A stretch of DNA of 64,000 bases from Moniliella sp. 'wahieum' (taxonomy: Eukaryota). Below the pieces are notes generated by a model. That model had not been told where the DNA came from. It did no database searches and was given only the letters and a program-made list of their open reading frames with translations. Below are positions 5,640 through 57,856 of this stretch, piece after piece. The translations under genes were made by a program, and so were the position numbers. Each line of letters starts with the position of its first letter. The stretch's first letter is position 1. The stretch is taken from NCBI GenBank assembly GCA_003971905.1, contig RSEE01000001.1, positions 248,001 through 312,000 on the forward strand. The letters are read 5' to 3'.

Positions 5640-6425
5640 GCTGCGGCGGCGGGGAGGAGATGGGGAGAGAGGCGCAGGCTGGCGGGGCAAGTGCCTGCCA
5701 GGTGGAGCATGCGCGGGCGGTGCGCGTGCTGGGACACTGGCGCGGTGCGTGCTGCCATGCGGCTGCCTCGTCTCAGATGCTCCGCTGCTGGGCGGGGGGG
5801 CAGCCGGGGGGGGCGCAGGGCCCAGCAGTGCCCAGCACCACGCAGCACTCAACCGGGGCGGCGAGGCTGCATGCGGAGGGGTGCTGCGCAGTGCTGCGCT
5901 GTGCTGCCCGGCGCTGCGGTGATGCATGGAGCAGGGCGCTAGGGTTGCTGCAGCGCGAGGCCTGCATGGGACGCATGCGGGGCGGATGTGGGGCTGCGGC
6001 TGGTCTGCCTGGCATGCGGCTGCATCCACTGCATGCCCGGCTTCCGTGCCGGGGGACCCTCCCAGTGACCCGGTGACTAGTATGACATGTGATGTGCATG
6101 TGACCACATTCGAGGCACGGAGGCACTGAGGCACTGAGTGGCAGCGCCCCCAGTTTGGGATGGGCAAGCGCCCACGCACGAGGCCAGCCTAAGCATACAT
6201 CTTCGGATAACGATGGCTCTGGATTGGTGCGTGATGCACGCGTGATGCATACTGCATCCGTTCTATCGGCTCTGGGTACAATGCTTCTGCAGCAGTCATT
6301 CCTATCACATATCTATTCTTCAGCGCAACTCCATTGCAGTTTGAGGCCCCACCACGGCCTACAGTGGGCAACACAGCGATAGCTCTCTATGCCTGACTCC
6401 ACTTCCAGCAACCCAGTTTCATCAT

Positions 6426-6509
6426 GGGTTCGTGGTGTAGTGGTATCATGCCTCTTTAGGGTTAGTCAACTCGTAGAGGTGGTCCTCGGTTCGATCCCGG
6501 GCGGACCCC
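6426..6509 (+). tRNA. tRNA-Pro(AGG) with 12-nt intron (6462..6473)
   Basis: Cloverleaf: acceptor GGGTTCG/CGGACCC, anticodon stem CCTCT/AGAGG, loop TT-AGG-G^T, T-arm CTCGG-TTCGATC-CCGGG. A T-run (Pol III terminator) follows directly. Confidence 0.93.
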
Positions 6510-6574
6510 TTTTTGCCTTTTTCTGTCTGCACCGGTGGTTGGCTCAATTGGCACCAAGTTAATCGTCCAAAAAC

Positions 6575-6856
6575 CTATCCGAGTTGAAGTGCAACTCGCC
6601 TGGACACATATCCCACCCGCCAGCACTTGTTCAGATCATTCAGACTCTTATACGATAAACATGTAGCGCGGAACAGGCCTGTGCTGTCACTGTAGCCCAT
6701 CCCAGGCGGGACAAGAAGGACAGCATCGCCACAAGCGCCGCAATAGGAACAGAGTGTAGATGGTGAGGGGACGCAAAGAGAGGAGCCCTCCTGGGTGATC
6801 TCTGCCAAGACCAAGATGCCACATGTCAACACCGCAGCCGGCAGGACATGATGCAT
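6575..6856 (-). CDS. Possible small Cys-rich secreted protein (~93 aa)
   Basis: MHHVLPAAVLTCGILVLAE gives a hydrophobic N-terminus, followed by several Cys residues (CVP..CSYCGAC..C..C). No recognised family. Confidence 0.25.
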   Translation of the reverse strand: MHHVLPAAVLTCGILVLAEITQEGSSLCVPSPSTLCSYCGACGDAVLLVPPGMGYSDSTGLFRATCLSYKSLNDLNKCWRVGYVSRRVALQLG

Positions 6857-7688: not shown

Positions 7689-8302
7689 GATGGATGAAAC
7701 AAGCAAGTGGTGGATGGAAACGCGAACGAGGAAAAGCAAGAACAGACCAGAGGGTTCGAGGTCCAAGCCAAACAGGTCACAAGTCGTGTGCGAGTGGCGA
7801 ATGGCGGTCGGATGCCAAAGATTAGAGGCACCCCCCCCTCCCAATCAGGGCAGCGGTAACCCTAACAGGGAGCTCTATCAGTACTCGGTGTACTCAGACC
7901 CATGCCTCAGGCCCCGTGCCTCAGCCTGAGGCCTGAGATCACCGGTCACTGGTCAGCAGCACAGCCGCCTGGTACTCAGTACGAACACAAACAACACCTG
8001 CTGGAGGAATTCAGATGGTCCAGCAAAAACGAGGTTCCTACCCAGGGGGCTCGCCAGGCGTTCGGCCCCAGGCTCTTGCCCGGATCAACACACTGCTGCA
8101 GGTCTTCCACTCTGGGTGGGCCAGTAAAGAGAGCAGCGAAAGCTTAGTCTAAAAACATGTGTCACGCAGACGCCGTAAGGACAGGGGACTCAGCCCACCA
8201 CCTCGAGCAACACAGTCAGATCAGACACGTCTATACATGTGGCATGGTACGCTTGGGGGAAGCCAACCAACATAGCATTGCCCAGGGTTGACTAACAGTC
8301 GA

Positions 8303-12068: not shown

Positions 12069-13378
12069 CGCGGCAACCTTGGTGGGGAGAGCGCGCAAGC
12101 GCCAAGCACGGTGTTTGAGGTGGCTAGCACTGCCGAGGGAGGCCGAGGGCGCAGCTGCCCGATCGGGCGACCACGACGTCGCCCCAAATGCCACGTGTAT
12201 CCTTGCAACTTTCAACAAGCGGATTCACGTGAATATTGAATCGAATGCCCTGCGCAGCCTGGCCTATAAAGCGGCTTTGCCTGCTGGCAACTTTTTGTTA
12301 CCGGTAACCGGTTGGCCTCGATTCGGAAGTTTTGATTCCCCTCAGGAACTACTGAACGTCAACCACATGCCCCATCCCTCTGCGCTGGGTGCTGCAGATG
12401 ATACTGCGTGACGCGCATGGAGATCAATGGACTTGGGGGCCGCAAGCAAGGCAGGGGAAAAGGAAGCGGAACAGAGGGCGAAAGCGGGGCCGCCTCGCGC
12501 TCGACTTCGATAGTGACCAGTCGACCATTCCGTCTTTTGCTGCACCTGGGCCTGGGCACTTGAGCCAAGCCGACAGCCTGGCAACGTCCAACCTTCGTTC
12601 CTCCAAGCCTTGACCGCACGCCCACGCCTTAAAGGAGTCAACCACCAGTACGAGGAAACTGCGTGCGATACCAGTTATCTTTTATCGCCGCTGCATCGCA
12701 CATCACATGGGCTATCTGCAAGACCTACCTCCCACTAACGACTCCCTCTCCCCCACTGCATGATATCACGAATGGGAACTGGAAAGATCCGTGCGCATCT
12801 GTTTTGCCAACCTAGGCCGAGAAAGGAGCAACGTCGCCAACCAAGCTGATCATGCACCATGCCCTCCACTCAGGGAGCGGAAGCATGGCAGATCAGGGGT
12901 TTGATAAGGGAACGGAGATCGATAGTCGGCACCACCGCTTCGTAACAGAAGGAGAAGATGGCGACGCAGGATGGTGGCATGAAGGTGGTGATGGTGGTGG
13001 TGTCGGAGGCTTGGGCGGAATGTAGTTAGTTAGAAAACAGGAATCGAGCGGTTGGGGGATTCAATGGCTGGGGGCGGAACAGGGTGGAAACGAGCATTTG
13101 GCAGGACCGTGCGCAAGCAATGCCAGTGGGCGCGCAAGGGGTCAGTGTGGCCTCCATCGGACCGGTAGGGTTGGTGTTGGGAATGGCGTGCTATCGGACA
13201 CTGGCGCCTTGCGGCCCGAACATTCGACACTCTCCCTGTGCCGTCTGCCGGCCGCGCGGAGATGAGTCGATGGGGCCGGAAGAAAAATTGCAAAATTGAA
13301 GCCACGTGCGCGCCGCACGGCGCAAGTGTCGCGTGCAACCAGAGGCAACCCCAGTGCGGGGAGTTCACGCAGGGGGGC

Positions 13379-13435: not shown

Positions 13436-15811
13436 ATGGTGTATGTTCCCCCCCAGCGCGCATGACTGACTGCCGAGCCTCCTAGCTAACCCTGCTTCCT
13501 CCCAGTTCCTCCACTGTCCTCGGTTTCCCCCGCATTGGCCCTCAGCGCGAGGTCAAGAAGGCGCTCGAGGCCTACTGGGGCGGCAAGATCCCGGTTGAGG
13601 AGCTGCTCAAGGTTGCCAAGGAGCAGCGTCTGCTTACCTATGAGATCATCAAGAACCAGGGCGTGGACGTGATCCCCACCGGGACCTTCTCTCTCTACGA
13701 CCACGTCCTGGACAACTCGTTGGTCTTCAACGTGATCCCCGAGGCGTACGCCAAGTCTGGCCTCAACCCCTCGACACGTACTTTGCCCTGGCCCGCGGCC
13801 ACCAGAAGGGCGGTGTTGACCTTCCCGCCACGGAAATGCGCAAGTGGTTTGACAGCAACTACCACTACCTTGTCCCTGAGTTCACCCCTTCGACCGAGTT
13901 CAAGCTGAACGACCTCAAGCCTTTGAACGACTTCGTCGAGGCCAAGGAGGCCGGCTACAACGCTCGTCCTGTGCTCCTCGGCCCCATCACTTTCCTCTAC
14001 CTTGGCAAGGCTGGTAAGGGTGCCCCGGAAGACTTCAAGCCCTTGAGTCTGCTTCCCAAGCTCATTCCCGTGTATGCCGAGCTCCTCAAGAAGCTTGGCG
14101 CTGCTGGTGCGTCTTGGGTTCAAATTGACGAGCCTGTGCTTGTCACGGACGACGCTGCTACCCTTGCGGACGCCTTCAAGCAAGTTTACACGGAGCTTAA
14201 CAAGGCCGTTCCCGAGGTCAACCTGATGCTCACCACGTACTTCGGTCGCCTCGACTCGAACATCAGCTTTGTCAAGGACCTGCCCATTGCTGGTCTCCAC
14301 ATTGACCTTGACCGTGCTCCCCAGCAGCTCGAGTCGGTCGTTGAGGCCGTTGCCCCTACCAAGATTGGCCTCTCGCTTGGTCTCGTTTCGGGCCGCAACA
14401 TCTGGAAGACCGACCTGGCTGCAGCGCTCGAGAAGGCCAAGTACGCTGTGGAGAAGCTTGGTTCGGACCGTGTGGTTGTCGCCAGCTCATCGTCGCTCCT
14501 TCACACTCCCATCACCATTGCCAATGAGAAGAAGCTCTCGCCTGAGGTTCTTGACTGGTTCTCTTTTGCCACTGAGAAGGCTGGCGAAGTGGCTACGCTT
14601 GCCCAGGCTCTCGCCAACCCCAAGGCGGCTGAGGCCGCGTTGGCCAAGAACGCCACCTCGATCAAGGCGCGCCGCGACTACGAGAAGAACTCGGACCCTG
14701 CCGTCCGCGAGCGCCTTGCCGCTATCAAGCCCGCCGACCTGGAGCGCAAGTCGCCTTTCCCTACCCGTGCTGCTCTGCAAAAGAAGCACCTCAACCTTCC
14801 CCTCTTCCCCACCACCACCATCGGCTCTTTCCCCCAGACGAAGGAGATTCGCCAGGTGCGTGCCAAGTTCAACAAGGGTGAGGTGAGCCAGGAGCAGTAC
14901 GACCAGTTCCTGGAGAATGAGATCAAGGATGTGGTCGAACGCCAGGAGAAGCTTGGCCTCGACGTGCTCGTCCACGGCGAGCCCGAGCGCAACGACATGG
15001 TCCAGTACTTCGGTGAACTTCTTGACGGCTTTGCCTTCACCCAGAATGGCTGGGTGCAGAGCTTTGGCTCGCGTTACGTCCGCCCCCCTATCGTGGTGGG
15101 AGACGTGTCGCGCCCCAAGGCCATGACGGTGCGCTGGTCGGTCTATGCTCAAAGCCTGACTAAGAAGACGATGAAGGGCATGCTCACCGGCCCCGTTACC
15201 ATCCTTAACTGGTCTTTCCCCGTGCCGATGTGGGCAAGGACGTGCAAGCACTCCAGATTGCCCTCGCCCTCCGCGACGAGGTGGCCGACTTGCAAAAGGC
15301 GGGCATCAAGGCCATCCAGGTGGATGAGCCGGCCATCCGTGAGGGTCTTCCTCTGCGCCACGCCGACTGGCAGGCCTACCTCCGCTGGGCTGTGGACTCG
15401 TTCAAGCTGGCCACGGCGATCGCAGATGATGATGTCAACACGGCGTCGCACTTCTGCTACTCGGACTTTGCCAACCCGGCCGTGATGCAGGCGATGATTG
15501 ACCTGGACGCCGACATGCTGTCGATTGAGAATGCCAAGGCCGGTGCCAAGTACCTCAACGTCTGGAAGTCGATCCACTACCCCAACGAGATTGGCCCTGG
15601 TGTGTTTGACATCCACTCGCCTCGTGTGCCGTCGAAGGAGGAGATGCTTCAGCGGATCAAGGAGAATGCTCTGTTCCTCACCCCCGAGCAGCTCTGGGTC
15701 AACCCCGACTGTGGTCTCAAGACGCGCACCTGGCCCGAGTGCGAGGCGCAGCTGGCCAACATGGTCACCGCCGCGAAGGAGGCTCGCGCTCTGTTCGCCG
15801 ACAAGAAGTAA
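13436..15811 (+). CDS. MET6: Cobalamin-independent methionine synthase
   Basis: ATG GT^gtatgt..cccag intron 13441..13505 gives MVSSTVLGFPRIG; KWFDSNYHY; PTTTIGSFPQT; HGEPERNDMVQYFGE; HFCYSDF; WVNPDCGLKTR. Two indel frameshifts (~13770, ~15220). Confidence 0.97.
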
Positions 15812-16016
15812 GGCTCCTCTTTCTCCATCTCCCACCCTCCTCCCGATCGCGCTACTTCAACATAGTAGCCGTCCTCGGGCGTGCTCAACGCATCGCCCAA
15901 CTTGGACTCCACCAGCAACCCCATCTGGGCCCCATCTGGCTTCACGTCGTCGGAGCCTACTCTGACATGACATGATTCACTCCTTGTATTGTTCAACACC
16001 ATCTGTAAGATGATTC

Positions 16017-16233
16017 TGTAAGACCGGAGGAACCCAAGGGATTGGGTGAAGAACCTCTGGAAATGTAGAGCAATGCAATCGCGATGGTGGTGGTTAAGGT
16101 CTAAGCCTTGTGCCACACCTAGAGACAGGGGTTCAGACAAGCCTGAGTATACACGTGGAGGCTTCGGAGGACAAATCAGGGGTGAAGGGTGATGAGGCGC
16201 CTTGGCCTAAGTACGGGACCACGGGTCCCAACA
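16017..16233 (-). repeat. 3' LTR of the copia element (217 bp)
   Basis: Identical to 21360..21578 except for a 2-nt (GT) indel. On the element strand it is preceded by a G7 polypurine tract (16234..16240). Confidence 0.96.
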
Positions 16234-16298
16234 CCCCCCCGGGCCAAGGGAACGAAAGAAGCCCGTTGGCCATCAACAAAAGAAAAGTAGAAAGGGGA

Positions 16299-19200
16299 TC
16301 AGCGCGAAGAAAGAGAAGCCAAATCGAAATTGTTACGCGCAGAAATGATCTTGGGAAGAGAAAGAGGTTTGGTGAACCAGTCAGGGAGATGGTGTGCACC
16401 TGGAGTGTAGTGGACTTTAATTTCGCCTCGGTGGATGCGTTCCCGCACCTCGTGGTACGAGACGTCAATCTCCCGTATTTTGCCTAGGCTGCCGAGCTTT
16501 TCGGCCAACGCTTTGGCAGCGGTGTTGTCAACAAAGAGCTCAATCGGGTGATTAGCCTTGCAGACACCAAGTTCAAACAGTATGTTGCGAATGAATAGAG
16601 CATCTCGAAGGCCATCTCCCATGGCTAGGTATTCAGATGCTGCTGTGTTGCTCACACCTTGATTTTGGGACTTGGAGCCCCAGGATACAGGCACACCGAA
16701 AACAAAAACAACATGGCCCGAAACGGAGTGAGAGTTGCTCTTGTCTGATGCAAAGGAGGCATCGGTGTGCAGCTCGAGTAGAGGGCGAGATCGGTTGGGT
16801 GTGAGGCACAAAGAGTAGTCAGACGTACCGGCGAAGAAACGTAATAGGTCCTCCGCTGCGCGTCGGTGGGCGGCGGACGGGTCGTCCATAAACCGCGCTA
16901 AAAAGGTAGCCGCAAAGAGGGCATCAGGCCGGGACATACGAGCCGCCCACAAGCTGGATCCGACAATAGAACGGTAGGCACGGTGCTCGTCTCGAGTGGC
17001 ACGCTTTTCGTGTTCGGGTCGCTTGGGAGGCGGAAGTTGGTGGCCGATTGGAAGGTAGCGGGGCCGGGGTGAGGTGATATGTCATGCGCGGCAAGCGTCT
17101 CAGCGATGAATTTGGGTTGGCTGATGTACAGTCGTCCATCGATACGGTCGTATTGGCAGCCGAGATGGAAACGTAGGGGGCCGTTGGACTTAATTTGGAT
17201 GCTGCGCCTTAATTCCACTAAGAATTCATCATACGCTTCTTGGGACCGACACGCGACCAAAAAGTCGTCAGTGTGGACGGCGATTAGGATCAGGCCAAGA
17301 GGTTCGGTGCGACGTATGAACAGGCAAGGCTCTGATTTTAGGCTAGTGAAGTGGAGTCGGTCGCAAAGGAAAGTGCGGAGCCAATCTCCAAAGTTGGCCC
17401 CGCTCTGGTGCAGGCCATAGAGACTTTTCTTGAGTCTCCAGCAATGACCGGGCGCTTCTGGGAAGAAGGGGGGTGGTCGAACATAGACGAGCTCGTTGAT
17501 ATCGGCATAGAGGTAGGCAGCTTCCACATCGGCAGAAAATAAGTGGAGGCCATCAGCTTCGGCCAACGCAATTAGCGTGTTGACGGCAGCAGTACGAACG
17601 GCAGGAGCAAAAGATTTCGCCCATGTGCCAGGAACTTGCCGGTGCCCTCCCACAACGTAGCGGGCACGGTACTTGAGGAAGTTAGCATCCGCATCCGTCT
17701 TAGTACCTATGACCCACATGCCGGGAAGGGGTTTGATCCCTGGGGGGATGGGTACAACTTCCTTCACGTCACGCTCGTCAAAACGCCGAAGCTCGAGGCG
17801 CATTGCCTCGAGTACGCCATCAAAGGCAGGGTGACCCACCAACTTCTTGATGTTCTTGGGGGCCACCGGGACCCCATCGGTGGTCAGTATGACCTCGGTG
17901 TCACTTGCCGCGGATTCGATTGCGAGTGCAATGGGGGGCGAGCTTGGCTCCGAAGCAGGTAGCATGGATGTGTCCGGCGCTGGTCCGAAAATACTCACCA
18001 AAGCCTGCATTCCTAGGGCGGAGAGGGCGGCCGGGTTGCCAAAGATGCTAGGGGCCTTGTTGACGAGCAGGGAAAAGGTGCCATCGCGCAAATTGTCGTT
18101 GGCTGGAATGGACAGGTCGAGGGGTGGAGCGTTGATACGCGCTTGGCGAACGGGATTGCGACGCACGAGTGCGGGGACGGCTGTATCGGTCAGGGGCACG
18201 GTCACGGGGGCGAGCGTGTCGGGGGGGAGAGAGGGGAGGGGGATAGGGCGGGAGAGGAAGGGGAAGTGGAAGAGGGAGGGGAAAGCAGGACTTGGTGGCC
18301 AGTGTCAACGGCATCTTCTGTGATAGTTTCATTTTCTTCGGCTTGCTTTGCCTGGCGTTGTGCCATGCCTGCGGGGTCAGATGCAACAGGTTGGGGGGAT
18401 ACATGTGGGGGGTTGGAGTTGGTGGGAGTGGGGCCAGGCTCTGAATTCTCATTTTCGTTGGCTTGAGCCGGGCGATGTGCCTCTGTTTTTCGTTCTTTTA
18501 ATTTTCTTTTTCCATGGGGGGCATTGTCTTTCTTACCATTAGTATCGCGGGTCAGTTCATCTATCGCAAAACGCACACGCCGGGGTGGGGAGCTGTCTGA
18601 CTTCCCACCAGCACCCATTTCTCCGCCCCCCCGCACCTCTCCGCCACCAGCAGGGACAAGGGGGTCCAGATGAAAGTGCGTGGGATATTCGGTGGTGTAC
18701 GGGACATGCGTCCAGGTGGACGGCTTTTTCCAACGGAATCCAACTTGGCCGTCGTCCTGGTGGATGGCAAAGAGCCACCCCTTCGAACCGCGGCCGTGCC
18801 CGTAACCCACCAACATTGCTGGGACGGCCCGCGGACCAAGTTTGCCGCCCTCGCGTTGGTTGGGCAATAGGTGCAGGTAGGCAAGAGTGCCAAAACCGCG
18901 CATGCGAAGGGAGGGTTTGAAGCCATGGTACCGGACAAATCGGCTGTCCCCACCCAGTGCTTTCGGCGGCGACTGGTTGTGTGCATATGTGGCCGCCAAC
19001 AAGCTGTGTTCCCACCACTCGTCGGGAGTCAATCTGTTGGCGATTACCATGAGTCGAGCGCGATCCGTAATCGATCTTATGGCGCGTTCGGCGACCCCAT
19101 TGGACGCACTTTCGCCAGGATTGGTGCGCTCGCTCACTACTCCCAGCTCGCAGTAAAACTCGTCCATTGCGGTGGTGAGTTCAGGCGCATTGTCAGAGCG

Positions 19201-21253: not shown

Positions 21254-21359
21254 TAGCTTACGCAGTTCGAGCAAGCGCTTGTGGATAGGGCCGGCAGCGG
21301 AGGACCGAAGAGTGTAAGAGTGGAAGGCTCAGGGCTGAGCGTCAAGAGGATTGTAACTC

Positions 21360-21578
21360 TGTAAGACCGGAGGAACCCAAGGGATTGGGTGAAGAACCTC
21401 TGGAAATGTAGAGCAATGCAATCGCGATGGTGGTGGTTAAGGTCTAAGCCTTGTGCCACACCTAGAGACAGGGGTTCAGACAAGCCTGAGTATACACGTG
21501 GAGGCTTCGGAGGACAAATCAGGGGTGAAGGGTGATGAGGCGCCTTGGCCTAAGTACGGGACCACGGGTGTCCCAACA
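21360..21578 (-). repeat. 5' LTR of the copia element (219 bp)
   Basis: TGTTGGGACAC...GGTCTTACA on the minus strand; direct repeat of 16017..16233. Confidence 0.96.
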
Positions 21579-24789: not shown

Positions 24790-25122
<333 letters not shown>

Positions 25123-25762
25123 TCAGTCGGTGTAGGGGAGGGACGGAGGAGGTAACCGGTAACGAGAGAAACGTACTTGTTGAGAGAGAGAGAAAGAACG
25201 AGAGAAACGGATGGAGGGAACAGCCCAGAAGACAACGCACCGTCCAGCCTATATATACCTCGAATCGTGTGGCGGTCCTTTGATCATCGATCACAGTAGT
25301 GGATGTCTCAGTCAACTAGCGTCCCAGCTTGTGAACGTGGACAGCAACACTAGGTTGTTGTTCCGGGGGGAACTGCCTCTGCCCTGGGAGGTTCACACGT
25401 TCACAAAATCCGCTGACGCAAGCCTGAGACACACCCCAACATTTCAAGGTTGGCCTTGCGCCCTGGGCGGATTGCGGCAGATTGCCGCTGCACAGATTGA
25501 AATGCACGCTGCATCTGAGATGATCGACCAAGCCACGCCCAGTGGTGTGTCGCGTGTCACATGAATGTCACATGCCACACATCACATGTCACCGGTCGCG
25601 TGTCACCGGTCACCGGTCACCCCCCACCATTCTAACAGTGGAGAGAGCAGATGTGAACGCGTGAACTTCTCCTTTTCTCCCTCCTGTATAAATGTAACCC
25701 CTTGAAACTCGCTTTCTTTACCCCTTCTCCCACCCTTTCGCCCCTCTCATCCGATATATACC

Positions 25763-26251
<489 letters not shown>

Positions 26252-27378: not shown

Positions 27379-27525
27379 GTTGAGAGTGTTGAAGTTGAGA
27401 AAGAGACGCGAAGGGTGGAGGGAGGAGAGGTTGGGGTGGGCGAGGAGCACCCACCATCGGCGGACGTATATATACGTTGCTTGCAGCACCTAACTCAAAA
27501 AAGAGCCCTAGAGTAGGCGACGCGT

Positions 27526-27623
27526 TTTTGGTGCGCACCAAAATGTCTCAGTAGCAATTAATGCCAGCCAAAGCCACGTAGGAATCCATCCAACCCTAGC
27601 TCCGACGTGGTTTTGGTGCGCAC
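27526..27623. promoter_or_regulatory. Palindromic motif pair in the H2A/H2B divergent promoter
   Basis: Perfect 18-bp palindrome TTTTGGTGCGCACCAAAA (27526..27543) and a second copy TTTTGGTGCGCAC (27611..27623). Confidence 0.5.
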
Positions 27624-27648
27624 GAATTCCTGGCGGTCATCTCTATGA

Positions 27649-28263
<615 letters not shown>

Positions 28264-42135: not shown

Positions 42136-44319
42136 CGCGGGCACGGGGAGGGTTAGGAGAGGGTTAGGAGACGCATAGATGGGGAGGGCAGGGGCGGTAT
42201 ATATACCGTCGGGAGCGGATGTGTTGTGAGCGTCAGGCGTCAGGGCGGCAGGGTGTGGCCTGGTGCGGGGGCGGCCGGGTGGATGGTGGCGGAGACGGCG
42301 AGAGGCGAGAGGAAGTCAGCAGTGCTGCCACACCAGCAGCCTGCCTCCCAGCGCTCGTGCCACCCTCCGTCGCACCCGCTCCAAGCGTGAGACAGAGATG
42401 ATCGGTGAGAGGCGAGATCTGAGAGTGCGGCTAACGCGGACACTGCCCCCGCGGTGCACCGTCCATGCGCTCGGGCGTCTGCATCTGCGCCGAGGCGGAC
42501 GGAGCGGAGCAGCGGCAGACGGCGGCTCAGCGACTCAGGCCCCGGGACCGCTGAGTCTCAGGCGCACCGGCCCCGCGCACCCGGCCACTCTACTGGCTCA
42601 GTCACTGGCAGCCTCCGTCTAAGCGCTGGCAGCCGGCATGCGGCATGCGGGCTGCGCCCCCCCCCCCCCAGCACCTCGCCAGTGTCCATCTGCGCTTGCC
42701 GACGCCCGCAGCAGCCCACTGCCCAGCGCTGCGGCTGGTAAGATCTAAGATGCAAGAGGTAAGCGGGCAGCCGGTAAGCACGGCTGACGCTGACGTCAAC
42801 GCATCACGGCATCACCCTCTACGCTGCCACGATCGAATCCATCCACAGTCGAGGCCCAAGCCGCAGCGAAGCTTCCGCACGGCATGGCGCTCAGCCTCAC
42901 CGCTCACCGCAGCCCGAGCACGCCTCCCATGCTGCCTCCTCAGCTTCCAAAGCACATTCATTGTGCGAGAGCGCGTGACGCGCGCCGGGCGGGAGGCCCT
43001 GAGGATTGCAGACGCAGCCGTCTTGCTCAGCCTCCTCCCTCGGGGGCACTGCATTCATCGAGTCCTCAGCCGGAGGTCTTCTACCGGTTACCCCGCATAT
43101 GCCCTTGCCGTGTGTATCTTTCTCGTCGCGTGGGTTGGGGGGCACATCTCGCGTCCTCGACGTCTCGTCGATCATCCCAGCTCACTCGTAGCCACACTGA
43201 TGTATGATGGCTGACTGGGTTTTCAGCTGCGATTACATCAGGGTGCACAACGTGTACACTTCCATCGCCCTCACTGGCAGCCTCTCTCCACGACAGCCAC
43301 TGCACACTGTGTGGCGCACTTTTCAGCCTTTGTGAGTGACTTGCTGCCAGGCTGAACGTGAACGTTCAGGCTGAACAGTCTGTTTCCTGTAAATATTAAA
43401 TGCCATGGCATATACATGAGCCTTGTGCCAAAAGCTCTGGGGATATTATGTTCTTTTGCCCGGTGCACTTGCATCACAGACGTTTTGCCCTCCATCGTCG
43501 GTGCGGCACGTACGACCAGCTCTTCTCCGCACGACACGCCCTACGCACAATAAGAAAGGAGGAGATGGTTGTACTATTCCAGGAGAGGAGCCCGTCAAGA
43601 GCAGAACATAGGGGAGAGTCGGAGAAGAACAGCCTTGAAGGTGATGCGTGATCAACTACATGCGTGATGACGCTGACATAATAAACACATTGTTTGCCTT
43701 TTTTTTGTCCCTTCCTACGTCCTACAACCTGTGAGAGGGCACAGCCCGGGGGAAATAGTGAGGAAAAGAAGAGACTCAGGATCACACAGTCTAACACAAC
43801 CTCGCCGGTGCAAGCCAAAATAAAGTTTTAAAGACCCAAGCATCACTTAGCCAGAGCTCAGCCGCTGTCCAATACTGAAACGCAGTGTTCCGACAAGGAG
43901 GCTTCCATGGTGTATGACTGGTGACCTTGCTTTTGCCACACCATGAGAAACCGCTGCCGGGGGAGTGGGCATGTGGGTTGGACATTGGATGCCGATGAAT
44001 TGCGGGGCTCCGCATCTCAGATCATCGATCATCGATGATCGATCTCATCCATCCTATACTCGTCACGCGTCACGGATCATTCAGTGTTGAATATTCGCAA
44101 GCATCTCCTGCACATCATGCATCATGCATCATCCATCAGCCGCACCTGTCAATCTATCACTTGTCAATATCACTTGTCACACATGCTACGCCACTGCTAC
44201 GCCAGTCCTACGCCTCTTCCCACAGGGGACTGAGCCACCGTATCCCCTCCCTAGATACTGACGGGACGCGGGGATTCTCCCGCGGGTGGGGTCTTACGTA
44301 TCCACACTTATTATACTTT

Positions 44320-44374
44320 TCAAGCTACAAGCTACAAGCTTCAAGCTTCAAACTTCAAGCTTCAAGCTCGAAGC
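44320..44374. repeat. (TCAAGCT)n period-7 tandem array upstream of SPT6
   Basis: tcaagctacaagctacaagcttcaagcttcaaacttcaagcttcaagctcgaagc, about 8 units. Confidence 0.85.
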
Positions 44375-44749
44375 AAGGTTGGGCAGTTTGAGCGCGTCTA
44401 TCTCTTTGGAGAGAAGATGCTCTGGCGTTGAACATGGAGATCAACCCAGAGCGCCACATTCTGTTAATCATGTCGAGTTGGAGGGAAGCAGAGAGAGGCG
44501 GTGGGATCTAACTTTTCTCACGCCGTATTATGTATCGTATGCAAAGCAAGCGTTGCGATGCAGGATGGCCGGTCTTGTTTCAAAAGTACAAGGCGGAATA
44601 GGGATTGCTACGCGGCGGCATTCGTTCCGCGTGCGGTTCATCCATCATCTTGTCTGACACGTCTCCTGGCTCCACCTTGGCCCCGCCTGGCCACCATCGC
44701 GCGTTTGGGTCTGAGGAGCCCACCTGGCGTCTCCACACCGTCTATCGAC

Positions 44750-45270
44750 ATGTCGAACAAGGAGCGCGCTGAATCTCCCAAAATTTTGCGTCAAAAATCT
44801 GCCTCCCTCTCAGACAGCGAGGGAGAAGGGAAAGAGTTAACCACAACCACCCCACCACCACTGAGGCGAGGGGGATGACTCATCCGAGGTGGACGACTCG
44901 TCCGAGGGGGATGATTCGTCCGAGGAGGATGAAGATGACGAGGATGCCGCCCGTGAGGTCGCAGAAGGATTTATTGTGGATGAAGATGAGGATGAGGAAT
45001 ACGACGAGCGTCGTCACCGTCACCGTGGACGCAAACGCAATAAGAAGCGTCGCGAGATGAGGAAGAACGCGAGGACTTAGACCTCGTCACCGAGAACACG
45101 GGCCACCCGTGCCAAGTTTGCAGTATATATTTTGTTTGAAAAAAACCACTCTCGTGTGGACCTGATCCACTTTACTAACCCTTACGACCACAGCACAAAC
45201 TCAAGCGCTTGAGCCGCGTGGCTCACGCGAGCCCTCATCCCGCCCTACTGACTTGGCTCGCATGTTTGAG

Positions 45271-45302
<32 letters not shown>

Positions 45303-47897
45303 AGAAGTGCTGAGCATTGCAGATGCAATCAACGCAGGTCCCAACACTTCTTCCCGCCGCGATAGCACTACTCGTCCCGTTGCATATGTCGACGAAGATG
45401 ACATATGGACGAAGATTTCATCGATGATGATGACGAAGACTTGGAAGGGCTAGACGAGGATGGACGGGAAACGCGCCATCAAGGGCTCAATGGAGAGAAG
45501 CGTAGACTGAAGGCTGCTGGTCGTGTTCTCGGAATGGACCCGGCTAAATTGGGCTTTGACCGCGAGTCTTGGGGGTTATGCATGACGGGTTTGGTAGCGG
45601 AGACGATTACGACTTGGCTCCGAGCCCGAGGATGAAGAGCTGTTGAAGGAGGTCCTCCCGAGAGTCTCCTTGAAGGATGTGTGTACTTTACTCTTCGCTT
45701 CCATTGCCAAGTGCAGCCCACTGACGTTTGTTTATGTACAGGTATTTGAACCAGCTCACAGATAGAGAGCAAGATGCTCACGGACCGGGACGAGACAATT
45801 CGCGAGCTTGACTATCCCGAACTCACCCAGCTTGCCCTTCCACAAGACATTGCGTCCGTACTATTGGGGGTCGCACTGGATGATGACCAGTTGGACGAGG
45901 CGGCCAAGTGGGCCAGTGTAACAGTGTGGCATCCCGGGCGAAGACAACCTTGCCGGACGGGGACTGAGAGGAAGTCAGCGCTCAGCCCTCTCGGCTCGTC
46001 GGGCAAGGAGACCGGACGTAGGCCCGAAGCGCGAGCTTCGTAGCAAAAGGGTAGTGCCCCTCTGCCTTGCCGTTCCCAAGCTGAGTCCAGGCGAGGCCAG
46101 TTGAGGCGGGCCGTAGGACAAGACGAATGGTCGCTTGCCCCAATACATTCTCGGTACGGAGCGGGTATTTATATAGGAAAAGGCAAAGGGCCCGTGAGCT
46201 ACGCAATTGGCAAGCGGCCAAAACTGTGGCCTGTCGGAGACCACATGCGTTGAATGACCCCGTTCACCGGCTAGGAGAAGCCGAGAACATGCGATAAGCA
46301 GCGGCGCCGTCAACAGAAATATTCCGGTGGCTTCTCCGCATCGCACCGTGACAGCCAGCATTCGGATCTCTTCCCGCAACCATAAGACGTTATTGAGAAA
46401 GGAACGTGGCGGTCGCTTTACGACCACTGGCTTGCCTGTAGTGGTCTGCACAAACTCAACATACCTATCCCGCTCGGAACTGATCCAACCGTATGCGGAA
46501 CGACGGGGCGCCTTCCTACTTCCCATGGCGGACCAAGCGTTCATAATGTTTACGGGCGAAACGCGGAGGACGGTTGATGCCGATTGGTGGTGCCCGTCCG
46601 GATCATTCGGATCGTGGATAAGGGCCGTGCCGCCGTGACCCGTGTGGGCAGGACAGTTGCCTTTCTCCTTTTGGTCCTTCTTGACAGTAGTGGGATCGAG
46701 AAGAGAAGATCTTTGCCCTACGCCATCCCAAATTGGAAGGAGCACTCCCGCGTTCGTCTATGCCTTCAGTGTCAACCAGACCATTGACGCGATGGCCATC
46801 CAATTCGACCCTGCCACCGCTACCGTCGAGCTGACCGCCGATTCAAGCTACTTTGCCGAGGGGGATGTGGTTCACCGCGCAATGCCCACGGATCCACTAT
46901 ACTTTGACCTGGCCCACAAACGGGGCGGGACCAAGCCGTTCGCCGTGCCTGGTAACAGGGCAGTGTCGTGCGCATATCCCAACTTTCACCATATCATCAA
47001 AGCGGGCAAGACAGAAAAGATGCTGGCCAATGAGGGGGATGGCGCAGTCATCATCCGTCCCAGTTCATGTGGAACCGACCACTTGGCTGTGGCATGGTGG
47101 TTGTACCCGGGAGTGTACCAGCACATTGACGTTAAGGAGCTGGATAAGGAGAATGAGTACGCGCTCGGGCGCCGCCTCGTGGTAGGCGGTGAGGTGTACT
47201 CGGACTTGGACGAGCTGATTGTGGGGCACATTGATCTTATGTTCCGCAAAGTACAGGAAGTGGTGCACCATGACAAGTTCAAAGGCGAGGAGGATGAGCT
47301 GAACAAGTACTTTTCAACTACTGCCAAGCCAACCCTCACAAGTAGCAGTATGATGGATGTGCGATCGATCGCAAGCACCCTGGCTATGTTAAATTGTTCT
47401 TCAAAGCGCGCTGGGAAAGAAGTGTTGTCGTGGCCAGTCAAGGTGCTTCCCAACGCTTTTTTCGTGCGCTCCTCCCAAAATCCCGACGTGCCCTCCCTTT
47501 GCAACGCCTTCAAGTCGCTTTACATGGCCGTCGGCCTCACCTACCCCGCTGGGCGCACCCCGCCGTGGGAGCAGGGCGCACCCCAGCCTATGGCGACCGC
47601 ACTCCGGCCTACGCTGGCCTTCGCAACCCGGTTCATCTGGCCGCAAGTGCTACCCCGCTCGCCCGCCCCCCCCTATATGGGGGCGGATACGGTGGGAGGG
47701 GCCTACGCGGACCCATGTCCCTCCGTACCCCCTTGGCCGGTACCCGGGTCCGGCAGCTCCCAACCCCTATGCTGGCAGTGCACCGCTCTGCCCCGCCCAC
47801 CCCCGGGTAGGGACCCGGGAACTTACTCACACGTCCTCCCATGGGGTACCAGGTGCCTCCGCCTGGCCCGCCCCCTCTTCGGCCGCAGTGGAGCTGA
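44750..47897 (+). CDS. SPT6: Transcription elongation factor Spt6; core region collapsed or garbled in this sequence
   Basis: Acidic N-terminus with EGFIVDEDE and DFIDDD; FEPAQIESKMLTDRDETIRELDYPE; FTGETRRT/VPVRIIR (S1); tandem SH2 IIRPSSCGTDHLAVAW..YQHIDVKELDKENEYALGRRLVVGGEVYSDLDELIV; GRTP repeats. Confidence 0.88.
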
Positions 47898-48747
47898 ACG
47901 AAAGAGCCAGCGAGGGGGGGGGGGCACCGGCGTTGAGGTTAACGGCCATGTCCGTGAAAAAGAAAGCTCAATATGTTATGGACATTCGAGGAAATCCAAA
48001 AGTGTCTTGCTCCCACCCCCATCCCATGAGAGCTTCTGGCCCGGCTCAATAAGTAGTTCTCGACTCCGAAGACTGGAGGGCAATTGTGCAAAGTCGCACC
48101 GCCCGGTAGCTACAAAGATGGCAGAATCATTATAGCACTTTGGAAGCCGCCTATAGCACAGTGTTGGTATGAACTTGGCCCTGGCCGAGAAGCGAGGAGA
48201 GTTGGGTGTGAGGGACACGCCCGGAGTTCGAGGTGACAGGTTGCGAATCACATTAAAAGCGGGCGACGTAGATGTAGCCTATCGGAGAATTACATGAGGG
48301 GGGGAGCGGAGTTTTACTTGGATGAAGAAGCAAAAAAGGCGAGAAGTGTCACATGTCACATGTCACTACCCACAGGTGAGCCAGTGAGGGCAAGATTGCC
48401 GGGGGGGGGGGGGACAGCGAGGTTGAACGTTCAACGTTGTTCGATGATCGATGATCCCCTGTGTTGTGGCCCCCGTTTGGCTTTGCGCGGGAGTATAAAA
48501 TAGCACCCCTTCCGTCCCAAATCCGGCACGCTTGAGGATGTGAGCGCTTGCTGAGCGACGTTCACGTCCAGTGTTGAACGTTTCACCGTTCCAAACAGAT
48601 TAATAACTCATTCTCCCCAGACTCCTACCCAGGATTCATGAATCCAACCCAGTCGTGGTGTGTGACATTGACATTGCGAATGCGACCGCATGCGACCGGT
48701 AACTACTGTGCCCAACGGCCTACTAGCTACTAAGGCGTACTACGTGC

Positions 48748-48787
48748 CACATGTCACCTGTCACATGTCACATGTCACATGTCACAC
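48748..48787. repeat. (TCACATG)n period-7 tandem array
   Basis: cacatgtcacctgtcacatgtcacatgtcacatgtcaca; a similar array lies at 48346..48366. Confidence 0.85.
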
Positions 48788-49274
48788 AGCCAGCCCACGG
48801 TGCGGCCGTAGCGGTAGCCCGGTGTGGTCTTGGGAAATGCCGGAGGCTGGATCTCCACTGTGGCCCCGTGCCCTGGCAGCCGCGCTGGATCCAGCCAGGG
48901 TCCGGCGCTGTCCCGCCGCCTGCCGCAACCCTGCTGCACCCCTGTGCACCCTCCCAGCAGGTGTGGACAGTCCGCAGGCGCCCAGGGAAGCGGCCGAGAG
49001 CCGCTGACCAATGGTCAATGGCTGCTGGCGTAGTATCAGTGACCTCTGAGATCTCGCCGCCCGCGCACAGACCCTGCGCGCGAATTGGCGACACAGGAGT
49101 GCATGTTGCGGACGCGCAGCCTGCAGCTGGGAGCGCACATGAAAAGTGCACCGCATCGTGAAACGCGGAGTTGGCACAGCTGCAGCCATCCGCCTCCGTA
49201 GCATCTCAGCCACCCTTGCCACTGTTTCCCTTGGCATCTCCGCACCACCACCTCCACTTCTCCTCTCCCTCTTG

Positions 49275-51155: not shown

Positions 51156-52011
51156 CATCACCAAAATCAATAAATCATTGATCGGCTCCAACTGTGGGGC
51201 GGATCAGGGTCTCGAACTCTCCTATTCCCCGAACTCCTGGATTGGAGCGGCTCCTCGTCGGGGATAATGCACAACGCACTCATGGGGCTGCTGGATGCAT
51301 GACCGGCGCCCTCGCGCATCATGCATCATGAGAGTACCGCTGCGCTTTTTCTTGCATCCAAGTTCCCACTCTTTCTCCCCCCCTCTTCGTCGGTCTCCTC
51401 GTCTGCCCGCCGACGCACCATCTCTTATTCCGTCGTGCGCTGCTGATGGCTTTGCGCTGCAGAGACATATACCCCTGTCCTCTATCCTGCCCTATATGCG
51501 CCCCCATCTATGGCATGTTTTCATTGTCCTCCCTCCGGTCGCGTAGCACACAGGTGTGACCTTCGTCCTCACCAGTAACCGCGCTAGTTGATGTGCTTCA
51601 CATATATAGATCCATTTGTCCTTTTCTCTCCCATTCTTTCGGCCATCAACTTTCATGTATCGCAAGCTTACTTGCATGCGTATTCTGTATTAGCCCTCTA
51701 TCTCACCCGAACGATGCTGAAAGGTCCAAAAGCCCTATGGGCCTCAAGCCTGTGAGCCGCAGGCCTCACCTGCCCCACGAACCTACAATATCTTCTCGAT
51801 CGGAACGACCGATCTTGAAAATCACTGAACGAACTGTGGGCGGGTCAATTCACGTTCAATACTTTTCCGTGTTGCATGTTGGGGCTGAACCAGACATCTT
51901 GGACGTGGGCTAACCTTGGGTCCGATGTACGTGGGCTGTAATGATCTCGATGATAATACAGTCTTCAGATGAGGAAGATGGATGGGCAAAATAAGGACGC
52001 CCTTGTCGGGT

Positions 52012-52096
52012 CGAACGACGCAGGGGTCGAACCTGCAACCTCCTGATTACACTTTGAAAATCGTAGTCAGACGCGCTACCATTGCGCCAGCCGTCC
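52012..52096 (-). tRNA. tRNA-Arg(ACG) with 13-nt intron (52048..52060)
   Basis: Minus-strand cloverleaf: GGACGGC/GTCGTTC acceptor, GCGC D-stem, TCTGA-CT-ACG-A^A-TCAGG anticodon arm, GCAGG-TTCGACC-CCTGC T-arm. Confidence 0.93.
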
Positions 52097-53534: not shown

Positions 53535-55216
53535 TCACCGCCCCACATACCTGATCTCCAGGTAACGGAAGACAGGGTAAGCAAGGCCGGAAAAGCCCGA
53601 AGCCAGCTCAAACCCAATGTCTCCCCCAAACGTCTTGGCAATGGGGCCAGTGTACCATACCTGGCTCATTCCCACTGCCACACCTGCTGCACCAAAACAG
53701 AAGGCACCCAGAGCACCCCAGCCAATTGGCAACTTGTGCTTGTTATTCCCGATCCTTCGACGTGGTAATTGGCAAAGTCGTTGTGACGGAAGATGAAGTG
53801 CTCTTCCAACAGGACAGTTACAAAGATGGCGAGCCAGTAGCCGAGGATCGACATAAAATCCTCCAGTGTCGAGGCAAAGGAGTGGTACCCCACAATGGCA
53901 AGCGGGATGTAGATGGCAGTAACGATGATGGGCCAGATCAAACGAGGGAGAGCCGCAAGGTAGTGGGAGATGACCGAGATAGAAAGCCCCATCGAGTACA
54001 CATTCACAATGTTGTTGGCCACAACCGAGAGGACAAGGATGACCATGAAGAACTTGCCTCCACCATGCATTGGTCCCACCAACACGGCGCGCAAGAGACC
54101 CCCTAATTCTTCGTCCTCGTATCCGTGGTACCACTTGACCAGCGTAGGGCTTGCATTGGGCAAGATGTTGCCGTCGGCGTCGGCTACGCTAATCGCGGCG
54201 CTGGCGATTGCGCTGCCGAGCCACATCAGCAACACGCAGGGCGTGACCACACCCGCATAGGTGTACAAAAAGATACTCTTGCGCGAAGCATTCTCGGGCA
54301 TGTACACATTGTAATCCGACGCGAGCGATACCCATCCAATCACAAAGCCCCAGATCGTTCCGCCAAAGCTTAAGACTGAAGCCGCTTCGGCGGTGCCGGT
54401 CATCATGGGCTGCGAGACAAAGTGTTTGGCGCTCACGCCCAACATGACCAGCAGCGTCACAGCAGTGGGAAACCAGGCGATCTGCTCGTACCAGTGCACC
54501 ACACGGTACCCAACAGCCCCACCACAAGCGTCAAAATGGCAATGATCACCCCCTACCGCACCAGAAGTGAAAGCGCCCTTAAAGTCCGCCACTGCCGAGA
54601 GCGTCTGGGCACCCGCGATGGTGTTACTAATGGACCAGCCGACGCAGGCCATGCAATTGAGGAGTGCAACAAATTTTGCCCCATAATACCCCCACGAAAA
54701 CCGAGAGGACGTCATCTGGCGTAGGCCAAGCCGAGGCCCAAAGGTGGCGCAATAGGCAGGCAAGCAACCAGCAAAAAGGCAGATGAAGGCGATAGTGAGC
54801 AGACTGTCCCCGAGGTGCAGCCCAAATACAAAGGGGCCTAGCACACCAATCGATACGGTGGGCAAGGTGCAATTGGCTGCAAGCCAGACCATCAGGTTAC
54901 CGTAAAGATGAGGGTCCGTACGTTCGTTTGCCTTGACGCGCTGAATGCCACGAGCCTCGACGCCTAGCACCTTCTCGAGCTTGCGGTTGTAATGGCCGAT
55001 GGTGGCAATGAAGCGTCCAAAGGAGTTGTTGGGCAACTGGATGTCAGGCGTCGCATTCTCTGCATCCTCGTCGGCAGGATTGATGTAAGATGCGACTTCG
55101 ATCTGGTTGTGAATGACATCCTCCTTTTCGTCCGAGTATTCCTTTTTCCGGTCGATGTCGGGATGAGCCGAGTCAGCAGTGGGAGCCTTCTCAATGTCGT
55201 ATGAGTGGAGGCTCAT
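53535..55216 (-). CDS. FCY2: Purine-cytosine permease (NCS1 family, Fcy2-like)
   Basis: GVEARGIQRV; WLAANCT; FGPRLGLRQMTSSRFSWGYYG; ASDYNVYMPE; MGMSQVWYTGPIA..GDIGFEL..RYLEIRYVGR after one indel. Confidence 0.93.
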
Positions 55217-56519
55217 GGGTGACACGCAAGAGCGTTATTGGCGGTGCAGCAGGGTGGATTGGGTCAAAACAAGGAAGTGGTGGCGGAAGGAAGAGGCCAA
55301 GGAGATACCAGCTGAAACGATGGAGGGTATACGTGTACGTGGGAGGATTTAAAGCCCAGGACGCCTCTCGCGTGACCAAAACATGCAATGAAAAGAGAGG
55401 TGGGTGGTACCTGTGGCGCCGATTTAGGGTGCGTATCGGCCTGCACTGCGTGAGTGCTGGTGCATGAGTCTCTATATTAGGGGAGAGCTTTGTGCTCCCC
55501 TCTTTGGCGGCTTGTGTTCCTCCTTTTCTCTGCGGTCGGGCGTCCGTCAAGCTTCAGAGTTTCAGACGTCAATCTTCAACGTTCAACAGCAACAAGATCC
55601 GAAAAGCAAGGCTAAGCCCCTCAGTGTCCCAGAGCGTCTCGCTAACCCCGGAGAACGCGGATCGGAACCGTATCTGTATACTATACACACAGGAAAAAGA
55701 CGCCACCACGCCAAGGCGGACTGGGCGACTGTTGGGCCCTTGGGCCCTCGGTAACCCCTGGGCGAGAGCGGAGGGACAGAAGAGCCTGCGTTCAGGACGT
55801 CGGCACATTCCACTTGACCCTGTGAACGCCTGAACACCACAGCGCCCAGCTCTATATAAAAGCGCTGACAGTAGCGCTGAGTCTGGGCATTTTCAGTTTA
55901 CTTGCTCTCCTGCTCAGCGCTCAAAGACTGAGCGCACTGAGTCTCAGCGCTGATATATCATGAAAGCCAAGCGCCAGCAACGAAATTACTGCTGCCCTGG
56001 TGCTTTCTGCTGTGGAGTGGATCAGACGTGGTCGGTCACAGGTGCGCCGCTTCGCGCCCTTGCGCAACTTTGATAATCGAGATGCCGACAATCGATAATC
56101 GATAACGGGATAATTTAATCGATGATCTCGTTGATCCTCAGTGGGCGATGAGCCGGTCAGCGGATTGTGAGACCAGGTACAGACGAGAGGCACAAGTGGC
56201 CTTCGGCTGAGAGCTTTTCAGCCTCTGTATATGGTCTTCGCCATGGCGGCGGTCTCTTCCCACTGGAGGAGGCCAAGGCGGTGTATCCATGCGCGATTGC
56301 GCCCACAGCACCAAGCAGCAGCCGAGTCCGGATGTCCCCGCCGCCTCCGAGTAGGTGTGATGAGGGGGGCGCGAAAAGCTGTTTTGCGTGTGGCTCTCGA
56401 TGTGCCGGGCATATATATACTAGCAACAGTGGGTCATCGATCATCGGGGCAGAGTGGCATCGTATGAGCCAGATAAGCAGCACAATTAAGGTAATGTCAT
56501 GCCGCCTTCCTTGTCCTTT

Positions 56520-56732
56520 TGTAGACCGGAGGAACCCAAGCATTTCGATGGAGAAAAACTCTGGATGTAGTGGTAGGGTAATACAGCCGCGACGGTTGAC
56601 GGTGGGTTGAGATGTTGAGGCCCAAGCCTTTTGCCACACCAAGAGGAGATAGGGCTTCGAAAAAGCCGTAGTATACATGTGATGGCTTCGGAGGTCTCTC
56701 TATTCAAATAATAAGGGGCACCACGGGTTACA
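56520..56732 (-). mobile_element. Diverged solo LTR related to the copia LTRs (~213 bp)
   Basis: TG..CA termini. Shares colinear blocks with 16017..16233: GACCGGAGGAACCCAAG, CTCTGGA, AAGCCTT.TGCCACACC, AGTATAC, GGCTTCGGAGG, ACCACGGGT. Confidence 0.85.
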
Positions 56733-57856
56733 GGACGCTTGTTGTGGCCTCATCTGTGCGTACTATACGGGACCATGTTTCCCAGCACCTTCCCCTTATA
56801 CCCATAGAAGTCATGCAGGTCATGTGGGTGAAAAGGCGATACCGAGATGGTTACTAGCTGGCTATACAGAGGTCATATAAATACAATCTACTTCCCGCCA
56901 AGGGATCTTTCCTGGTTCCGCAGGAGAACCATAGGATGGTGTGATACCGTGGACATTGACGTTTCGTTCCGATCACACGTATGGCTCATGAAAACCCCCG
57001 CGGAAAGCCACTTCCGACGGAAGAGGTGGTGGGGGCAAATGAACAGGGCATCGAGATACACTTCGGCAGAGCAAAAGACTTCAATTTGTATAGAATGAAG
57101 GGGTATGATATTATAGCCATGTCCAACTCTCTTCCATTTGCTTTAAAACTGTCTCGCAATGTGACGAACTGCTATCGACAGTATCTCTTTCTATTTTCCC
57201 TATTATAGAGATGAGGCGCGGGCAAACTTCCTCCCACTATGGAGAGGAAACAAGACACACAGCTTTGTCACAATAAAGTGCCCATAAAATATCTCATAAT
57301 AGTGGTAGATGCATACCTCCACATCTCCTCTCGTCCTCCCCCCGCGAACGAAACAGATGTGCTTACTGCAGTGGTGCAGCCACCATGGGGCAGGTGGGAT
57401 CGACATGATCACCCTGCTGCGCCTTTTCGATCGACTCTGATACTGTAAATGGAACGGACGACCGAATTATTGGAGCATGTGGACGCATGCTTGTCCGGCC
57501 TTGTGGGCTATAATTCTGGTCCTGTTGGCCCTGGCTCTGTCTGCTGCTGCGCGGCACCGTCTCGCCGCTTGCGCCAGCGCGTCAGTACTCACACTCACTA
57601 GTCACTGAAGGCTAGAGAGCAGGGGGGCAGTACTAGCCCCCACACATTGACACAGACGCTGTCGCCCCGCCAGGGTTAGAGCAGCATCGGGGGGGGGGCG
57701 CTGGTGCAGTGCGGGCATGCCTGTGATGGGCACTGGGCCGCTGTGGTCCACTACCTCCGCGCGTAAACTGGTGGGGCGGAAGCCCGAAGATGACCGCCAT
57801 CGACATCAGCACCAGCACTAGTACCAAAACCAGCACCAGCGCCAGCATCGGTGTCC

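Follow-up and report, generated by a model that had tools for sequence, protein, structure and literature searches.

The closest described counterparts of the pattern reported here are palindromic traces left at sites of transposon excision. The pattern consists of intergenic units in which two TNA trinucleotides frame a 4-bp palindrome, and it was analyzed in a stretch of 64,000 nucleotides (the window) from Moniliella sp. 'wahieum' (GenBank assembly GCA_003971905.1, contig RSEE01000001.1, positions 248,001 to 312,000 of the forward strand; positions below count from its first letter). In RAG, Transib and Muta1, one of the Mutator-like elements (MULEs), these traces are palindromic (P) nucleotides, i.e., an even-centred palindrome templated by the flank and joined to the duplicated target, which measures 5 bp for Transib and about 9 bp for MULEs. 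Papers are cited below by PubMed Central (PMC) identifier. Hairpins on the flanking DNA are described for hAT, Transib, RAG and Muta1; Muta1 loses no base, and its flank hairpin of 43+43 nt is therefore blunt and even-centred (PMC5499845). The cut made by Pso2 and Artemis lies two nucleotides 3' of the hairpin apex, and Pso2 is needed for the repair of Ac/Ds flank hairpins in yeast (PMC3299998). Ac/Ds footprints (hAT) likewise comprise short P-nucleotide insertions at the empty donor site, with palindromes centred on the complement of the element-bordering base, i.e., with an odd centre and one base lost per side (PMC5873905). A basidiomycete hAT group, hAT7 of rust fungi, makes 7-bp duplications (PMC12730594). 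Fungal EnSpm/CACTA elements such as CNEST, CNIRT6 and Plavaka belong to the CMCT clade together with Mirage, Chapaev and Transib (PMC12810828, PMC12730594), and their grouping with Transib makes blunt flank hairpins plausible for them as well. Finally, scattered 10-bp repeats in the smut fungus Ustilago maydis have been proposed as footprints (PMC4081816).

All statistics refer to the window and to a hand annotation of 22 gene bodies and one Copia element (based on reading frames, Pfam and the sequence), which divides it into 29 kb of intergenic DNA, 29 kb of gene bodies and 5.6 kb of Copia. Across the whole window, 85 of the 199 TNA-N4-TNA words have a palindromic core, against 6.5 to 7.3 expected under Markov models of orders 1 to 3 and 15 under order 5. 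Hence, the enrichment over Markov controls that an initial annotation of this DNA had proposed is confirmed at 85 versus about 7 (orders 1 to 3). Fifteen of the 16 possible cores are present (AATT is absent) where at least 14 had been announced, and each of the 19 positions named for individual cores has a TNA-core-TNA 10-mer at or within 21 nt. Other even core lengths are at chance, with 26 of 105 palindromic at length 2 (chance is one in four), 1 of 132 at length 6 and 1 of 105 at length 8. Among palindromic hexamers in 7-bp phase, the A..T type occurs 85 times, while G..C (25), C..G (22) and T..A (7) correspond to chance. The spacing of A..T hexamers peaks at 7, 14 and 21 bp (23, 14 and 9 pairs), which bears out the proposed specificity for period 7 and a 4-base spacing. 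Of 42 perfect period-7 tandems, 25 have a unit made of a hexamer palindrome plus one base, and 24 of these are of the A..T type, where about 2.2% is expected; the claim that plain slippage is not the origin is upheld by this single shared geometry.

The 10-mers are concentrated outside genes. Eighty of the 85 are intergenic (Markov expectation 4.2 to 4.8, maximum 10 in 100 runs), four lie in gene bodies (one of them in the H3 intron) and one lies in Copia. They occupy 14 of the 22 intergenic intervals, and 34 of the 85 fall within a single 7.6-kb interval. The earlier statement that most intergenic regions hold arrays is thus right about the regions, but not about the arrays: the 69 in-phase tracts comprise 23 of a single unit, 33 of two and 13 of three or more, such that 56 of 69 consist of only one or two units. 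The middle bases of the paired TNA copies are the same in 64 of the 85 cases, complementary in 14 and neither in seven.

The basic unit is not the array but a 12-mer, TNAxy-y'x'-TNAxy, that takes its core from its own flank. It amounts to a 5-bp direct copy with a 2-base mirror in between, and it occurs in both orientations. Among the 64 sites with the same middle base, 52 extend at least two bases beyond the TNA on one side or more (17 on the right only, 16 on the left only, 19 on both). Counting both strands, intergenic DNA holds 69 perfect 12-mers where 0.15 would be expected; they represent 41 separate sites in the window. When TNAxy copies stand at a gap of 2, the filler is the mirror in 69 of 91 cases. 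At zero gap, a mirror of 2 nt is found 69 times, and lengths of 1 and 3 give six and one. The T that precedes the N is required (69 of 80), and the other odd palindromes (ANT, CNG and GNC) yield 0 or 1 product of this type each. In the 31 events that can be oriented, the far flank does not continue the repeat and shows no base preference beyond T-N-A. As this far flank is random, the core was built from one flank and was absent before the event.

The units also decay. One-mismatch 12-mers are found 117 times (5.6 expected) and two-mismatch 12-mers 191 times (73 expected), counts that include overlapping array edges, so that the events are not independent. Single mismatches are present at all 12 positions (5 to 18 each), with 8 to 11 at each fixed T or A position, and T>C, A>G and C>T transitions are the commonest. 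The young Copia element with its identical long terminal repeats (LTRs), which serves as a control for young DNA, contains no perfect 12-mer, and no 12-mer-type indel was seen between its LTRs or between LTR and solo LTR. Nearby clusters do not share cores: none of 29 pairs within 300 bp does (2.0 expected), and sharing at 150, 300, 600 and 1200 bp is not above chance. Cluster density per kb is 2.1 in divergent, 1.9 in tandem and 0.8 in convergent spacers. This promoter bias is not significant in the window, convergent spacers holding 2 clusters versus 4.7 expected (P = 0.15). Decay at all positions and the lack of core sharing between neighbours point to a decaying mutational scar and not to a binding code: the profile is that of recurrent sequence-specific insertion followed by decay. 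That the units are a mutational scar of some kind is very probable. Of the two origins originally offered, a dedicated fold-back mutational process agrees with a core that is templated by the flank and decays as a scar, whereas the binding or chromatin code is not supported, given a core predicted by the flank (52 of 64), T and A positions that mutate equally, the absence of shared cores and the lack of a clear promoter bias. The individual loci are as follows (strand given where assigned).

2760 to 2774: period-8 side product, a 7-bp duplication with one mirrored base added; ambiguous because of the GC dinucleotide run around it
2793 to 2804, minus strand: single 12-mer, core TGCA
6083 to 6092: 10-mer, core CATG, about 440 bp upstream of a minus-strand open reading frame
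6230 to 6247: period-11 product with two adjoining 4-bp palindromes (both mirror pairs), alternatively an 11-bp tandem duplication
7925 to 7955: GGCC and CCGG units, upstream of the Snf7-like gene
12230 to 12314: ATAT 12-mer and CCGG unit, in the divergent CUE/MetE spacer
24397 to 24408, minus strand: single 12-mer, core GCGC
25151 to 25293, minus strand: two single 12-mers (CCGG, TCGA), in the H4/H3 spacer
25391 to 25405: period-8 side product, the cleanest full 7-bp duplication joined via a 1-nt overlap
25566 to 25621: mixed-core in-phase tract in which a single TCA separates CATG units (left) from CCGG units (right), the outcome expected of hits on one target in both orientations
25816 to 25827, minus strand: 12-mer, core GTAC, within the H3 intron
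26696 to 26719: TAA/CGCG tract, in the convergent H3/H2A spacer
30224 to 30238: period-8 side product that is also a perfect 8-bp tandem duplication
33073 to 37871: densest zone, 20 clusters per 4.8 kb in a gene-free interval, with tracts at 33709-33739 (period-8 product at 33721), 34169-34251, 35332-35362, 35449-35488 and 35675-35712
39827 to 40101: two inverted-flank 10-mers (CTAG, ACGT)
42739 to 43401: GATC and ATAT 12-mers and one inverted-flank ACGT 10-mer
44020 to 44138: TCGA, CGCG and TGCA tracts, upstream of the Spt6-like gene
44320 to 44371: longest tract, seven AGCT units, part of them decayed
48347 to 48456: CATG tract and mixed ACGT/TCGA tract
48747 to 48786: CATG tract of five units
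51317 to 51330: 14-mer, core TGCA
55547 to 56445: AGCT, ACGT, GCGC, TATA and TCGA units, upstream of the purine-cytosine permease gene
57582 to 57606: GTAC 10-mer and CTAG 12-mer
62766 to 62775: ACGT 10-mer, beyond the range covered by the initial annotation

The 7.6-kb spacer at 32901-40507 has no convincing Pfam match; scars are dense between 33.0 and 37.9 kb and absent between 37.9 and 39.8 kb, a segment that may be younger or constrained DNA. The 12-mer extension is missing from nine of the 14 inverted-flank sites, which may have arisen differently. The inverted-flank ACGT 10-mers at 40092, 43359 and 48424 match a two-unit heat-shock-element consensus.

On balance, the units are probably footprints left on excision by a cut-and-paste DNA transposon that duplicates a 7-bp nnTnAnn target. 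Such an element would insert at a 7-bp target a-b-T-N-A-x-y and duplicate it, as a symmetric enzyme centred on T-N-A and cutting two bases past the A on each strand would do. Upon excision, both flanks would be sealed into blunt hairpins by the chemistry known from RAG, Transib and Muta1. A Pso2/Artemis-type nuclease would then open these hairpins 2 nt 3' of the tip, which fits the 2-nt mirror; opening at this point leaves exactly a 4-nt overhang, and the two flanks would carry the self-complementary overhangs x y y' x' and b' a' a b. End joining that retains one overhang and loses the other would produce TNA copies 7 bp apart around a palindromic core taken from one flank. The resulting scar would again be a symmetric 7-bp target with matching overhangs, to which repeat hits and slippage could add identical units, while hits in the opposite orientation would create mixed-core tracts. 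Scars would be near-neutral, would be purged from coding DNA because an insertion of seven bases shifts the frame, and would fade by point mutation, a decay that is directly visible in the mismatch series. A zero-loop mirror without prior complementarity is what an opened DNA hairpin leaves, and duplication of the target would require an integration step. Five of the seven target bases are directly seen duplicated in the scars.

This model and its predicted side products were fixed in writing ahead of the tests. Five loci have a left-type core plus one extra base, a class for which 0.04 is expected; in four of them, the extra base equals x and y equals b', and these four are full 7-bp duplications joined via a 1-nt overlap. 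One perfect period-11 product retains both mirror pairs (6232). Over 17 loci with gaps of 1 to 4, 18 of 41 gap bases match the prediction from the far flank, compared with 10.7 after permutation (p = 0.017), and five of the 17 loci match fully versus 2.0 expected (p = 0.018). These two-flank side products are suggestive only and back the excision model weakly. Several observations weigh against it. Of the five full matches, those at 6230 and 30224 double as ordinary tandem duplications, one sits within a GC run and one within an array. The six period-9 cases include no full match, and 14 matches remain when the flank is shifted by 2. Only one of six mixed-core junctions fits the model cleanly. 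Real excision might leave plain 7-bp duplications, but those with a non-palindromic core are not in excess in the window (TNA 4 and ANT 3 in all), and among 30 non-extendable 7-bp repeats the T.A pair is in the central register in four, with 0 to 2 for each of the other registers. One footprint class dominates here, unlike the described footprints, which are heterogeneous with 28 types in 128 clones, two of them dominant (PMC5873905). Moreover, the fungal EnSpm/CMC elements described so far in PMC12730594 and PMC12810828 duplicate 2–3 bp and not 7. No element that combines terminal inverted repeats (TIRs) with a 7-bp duplication was found in the window by a search for target-site duplications next to TIRs, nor with 8 or 9 bp; matches for 3, 5 and 6 bp came from chance or from the arrays, and a relaxed TIR search with CAC/CTC ends gave nothing convincing and no paired ends. 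CTCACTG words occur eight times in the window versus 11.4 expected. Pfam recognized no transposase family in the 49 long reading frames or in 150 of the 216 short intergenic ones; the short frames gave four weak sub-threshold matches, none of them to a transposase. As a separate observation, four of the six period-9 cases (6631, 33160, 34840 and 56811) are exactly one transition away from the predicted two-flank product.

An unlikely alternative is a host process without a mobile element. Here, a 7-bp insertion templated from one side (a 5-bp copy and two mirrored bases) would arise at T-N-A through a nuclease, a domesticated transposase or a local template switch. It accounts for the 12-mer, the flank templating, the neutral decay and the missing excess of plain duplications, and it agrees with the absence of an element from the window. 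Short template-switch mutations leave direct and inverted local copies in one event, as here, and in the four-point model both kinds of repeat are created together (PMC5453318). That model is described without a fixed length or motif (PMC5453318), both of which are rigid in the window; the geometry is possible for a polymerase, but the fixed T-N-A and the fixed 2-nt mirror are left unexplained, whereas an enzymatic hairpin explains both. A zero-loop mirror without pre-existing complementarity would also be hard for a polymerase to make, and a cut-and-rejoin enzyme that lacks integration would not be expected to duplicate the site. Furthermore, the 0 to 1 such products at ANT, CNG and GNC palindromes and the presence of both flanks in the period-8 products speak against a one-sided host process. 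Topoisomerase II 4-bp duplication, which leaves no mirror bases, was dropped as a candidate, the base after xy not being biased to A.

Functional heptad arrays are quite improbable, be it with a dimeric factor that reads TGA/TCA at a 7-bp pitch or with a symmetry-reading protein that marks nucleosome-poor DNA; later co-option of scars is a further variant of this reading. The intergenic position of 80 of the 85 10-mers, many of them 80–900 bp upstream of genes, would suit such a role, and readers of 7-bp arrays exist, such as omega on WATCACW heptads. In omega/parS of plasmid pSM19035, contiguous 7-bp units also stand in direct and inverted order near promoters, but they follow a fixed non-palindromic consensus in 7–10 units, at least four of which are needed for activity (PMC9499535), while the window has 15 cores, mostly in one or two units. 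Protein-read heptads are defined by a fixed consensus, protected positions and at least four contiguous units (PMC9499535), a definition that the units here do not fit. Instead, the local flank dictates the core, T and A positions decay like the others, neighbours share no cores, 56 of 69 tracts have one or two units, and units occur in an intron and in a convergent spacer; a protein blind to the core would hardly maintain its palindromy. Ordinary microsatellites whose hairpin-forming units expand more readily are very improbable as the source. The longer tracts are homogeneous and decay in a microsatellite-like manner, such that slippage probably contributes, but slippage as the origin is already largely refuted: C..G, G..C and T..A units are equally self-complementary and yet not enriched, the commonest form is a 12-mer of under two units with a random far flank, and the 24 of 42 period-7 tandems of one geometry contrast with 2.2% expected. 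A slippage microsatellite could take its unit from any local sequence and would have two full units at birth, which is not what is seen, the 12-mer being the primary form. A sequencing or assembly artefact is hardly credible, although the assembly looks error-prone: conserved genes shift frame, the MetE domain (15209-15485) at a C run near 15220, and others are split, which points to homopolymer errors in long-read assembly. Coding DNA and the young Copia are avoided, and read errors would not be expected to yield a graded series of decay biased to transitions.

Returning to excision footprints, the resemblance to RAG, Transib and MULE P nucleotides is close. The insert is the reverse complement of the flank end (69 perfect 12-mers versus 0.15), the centre is even, and the dominant 2-nt mirror has the near-apex length that corresponds to the described Pso2/Artemis opening site (PMC5499845, PMC3299998). 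The differences are a probable 7-bp target with a T-N-A centre, the dominance of one product and the density of several scars per kb. Muta1 excision in yeast, as described, is more than 90% precise, unlike the scars here (PMC5499845, PMC3299998). A hAT footprint, including that of hAT7, is rejected, as the dominant product in the window is even-centred and no base is lost. EnSpm/CACTA elements are set apart by their descriptions, with duplications of 2–3 bp where the scars duplicate at least 5 bp (PMC12730594, PMC12810828); in the window, the searches found neither CAC..GTG-type paired ends nor, among the reading frames scanned, a Tnp2-type Pfam match. An EnSpm/CMC member that duplicates 7 bp would be new. 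In end-remnant footprints, the filler comes from the ends of the element and has fixed bases whatever the flank. Such footprints (Tc1/mariner, or PIF/Harbinger or IS1031-like elements with TNA targets) are rejected as well, with 15 of 16 cores present and the flank copied in 52 of 64 sites. The initial annotation had also likened the arrays to a period-7 unit of U. maydis, which as given there has no palindromic core; a literature search found no description of that unit. The 10-bp repeats of U. maydis are likewise tiny, dispersed, intergenic and read as footprints in a smut fungus, but the accessible parts of their description give no palindromic-core rule (PMC4081816); the accessible parts of PMC4824034 do not describe them. 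For the 12-mer rule itself, no description was found in the literature search, whose scope lay outside subscription papers and Repbase Reports.

Excision scars are usually known from a few engineered loci, whereas here, on the excision reading, at least 41 perfect sites, plus decayed ones, lie within 64 kb. In a wider and more tentative picture, which we put forward as a possibility, a hitherto undescribed hairpin-forming cut-and-paste lineage with a 7-bp nnTnAnn target would have left scars at several per kilobase as a main intergenic component. Each scar would be a better target than the site it replaced, such that the element would write and lengthen palindromic microsatellites, and the genome would be a fossil library of hairpin-repair outcomes beyond any sequenced experiment. 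If true, excision scars act as a genome-scale force and provide a route to microsatellite birth other than slippage, past transposition can be counted and dated after the elements have vanished, and a fungus offers a natural read-out of hairpin opening and joining. The old idea that the tiny repeats of smuts are transposon footprints would then become directly testable. Specialists may be surprised by how dense and rigid the units are and by their apparent seeding of microsatellites, and should be warned that motif finders would call these units promoter elements.

Loci from other DNA were chosen by the presence of a three-unit array of one core; they amount to 129 mostly short loci (606 kb) from viral contigs (3 and 7 loci) and metagenome contigs (at least 119 stretches) and do not constitute a sample of related fungi. 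None of these 129 viral and metagenome loci, among the matches listed, combines several unrelated cores. Other-core 12-mers number 25 in them versus 9 expected, nearly all of them TATA or ATAT within AT runs. In metagenome contigs, three-unit CATG-core arrays are frequent (at least 119 stretches); their middle bases are often mixed, other cores are absent, and these arrays may be heptad operators of bacteria or plasmids.

The host is a basidiomycete with introns and a GC content of about 58%. Its CoA-transferase shares 87–88% identity with two other proteins and at most 53–59% with those of named fungi, the top one being Tilletiaria anomala. A quick one-gene tree places the host and the two closest proteins on a long branch beside Ustilaginomycotina (support 89), a loose placement. 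The sole listed sequencing run, X1 (share 0.05), covers 7 of 30 bins of 29001-49000, mostly coding, with the arrays outside its coverage. Over 40510-41673, it contains near-identical pieces as well as pieces about 85–88% alike from the same gene, and two related genomes seem to be present in it at low depth. The full-length Copia element lies at 16010-21578 on the minus strand, with LTRs identical across 212 nt and with its reverse transcriptase, integrase and protease pieces in different frames. A diverged solo LTR, kin of the Copia LTR, is found at 56510-56790, and 10-mers are missing from this point until about 57500. The Spt6-like gene (44750-48135) is fragmented, its SH2 part alone being recognized by Pfam. 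The labels H3, H4, Snf7, Swp1 and perilipin-like are our own reading, made without family scan support. ARAGORN predicts tRNA genes at 6426-6509 and 52012-52096, called Lys and Arg; at 84–85 nt both may contain introns, and the anticodon calls are unsure. The four core histone genes are clustered at 24790-28263 in the divergent pairs H4/H3 and H2A/H2B, with H2A and H2B called by Pfam and H3 and H4 by our reading.

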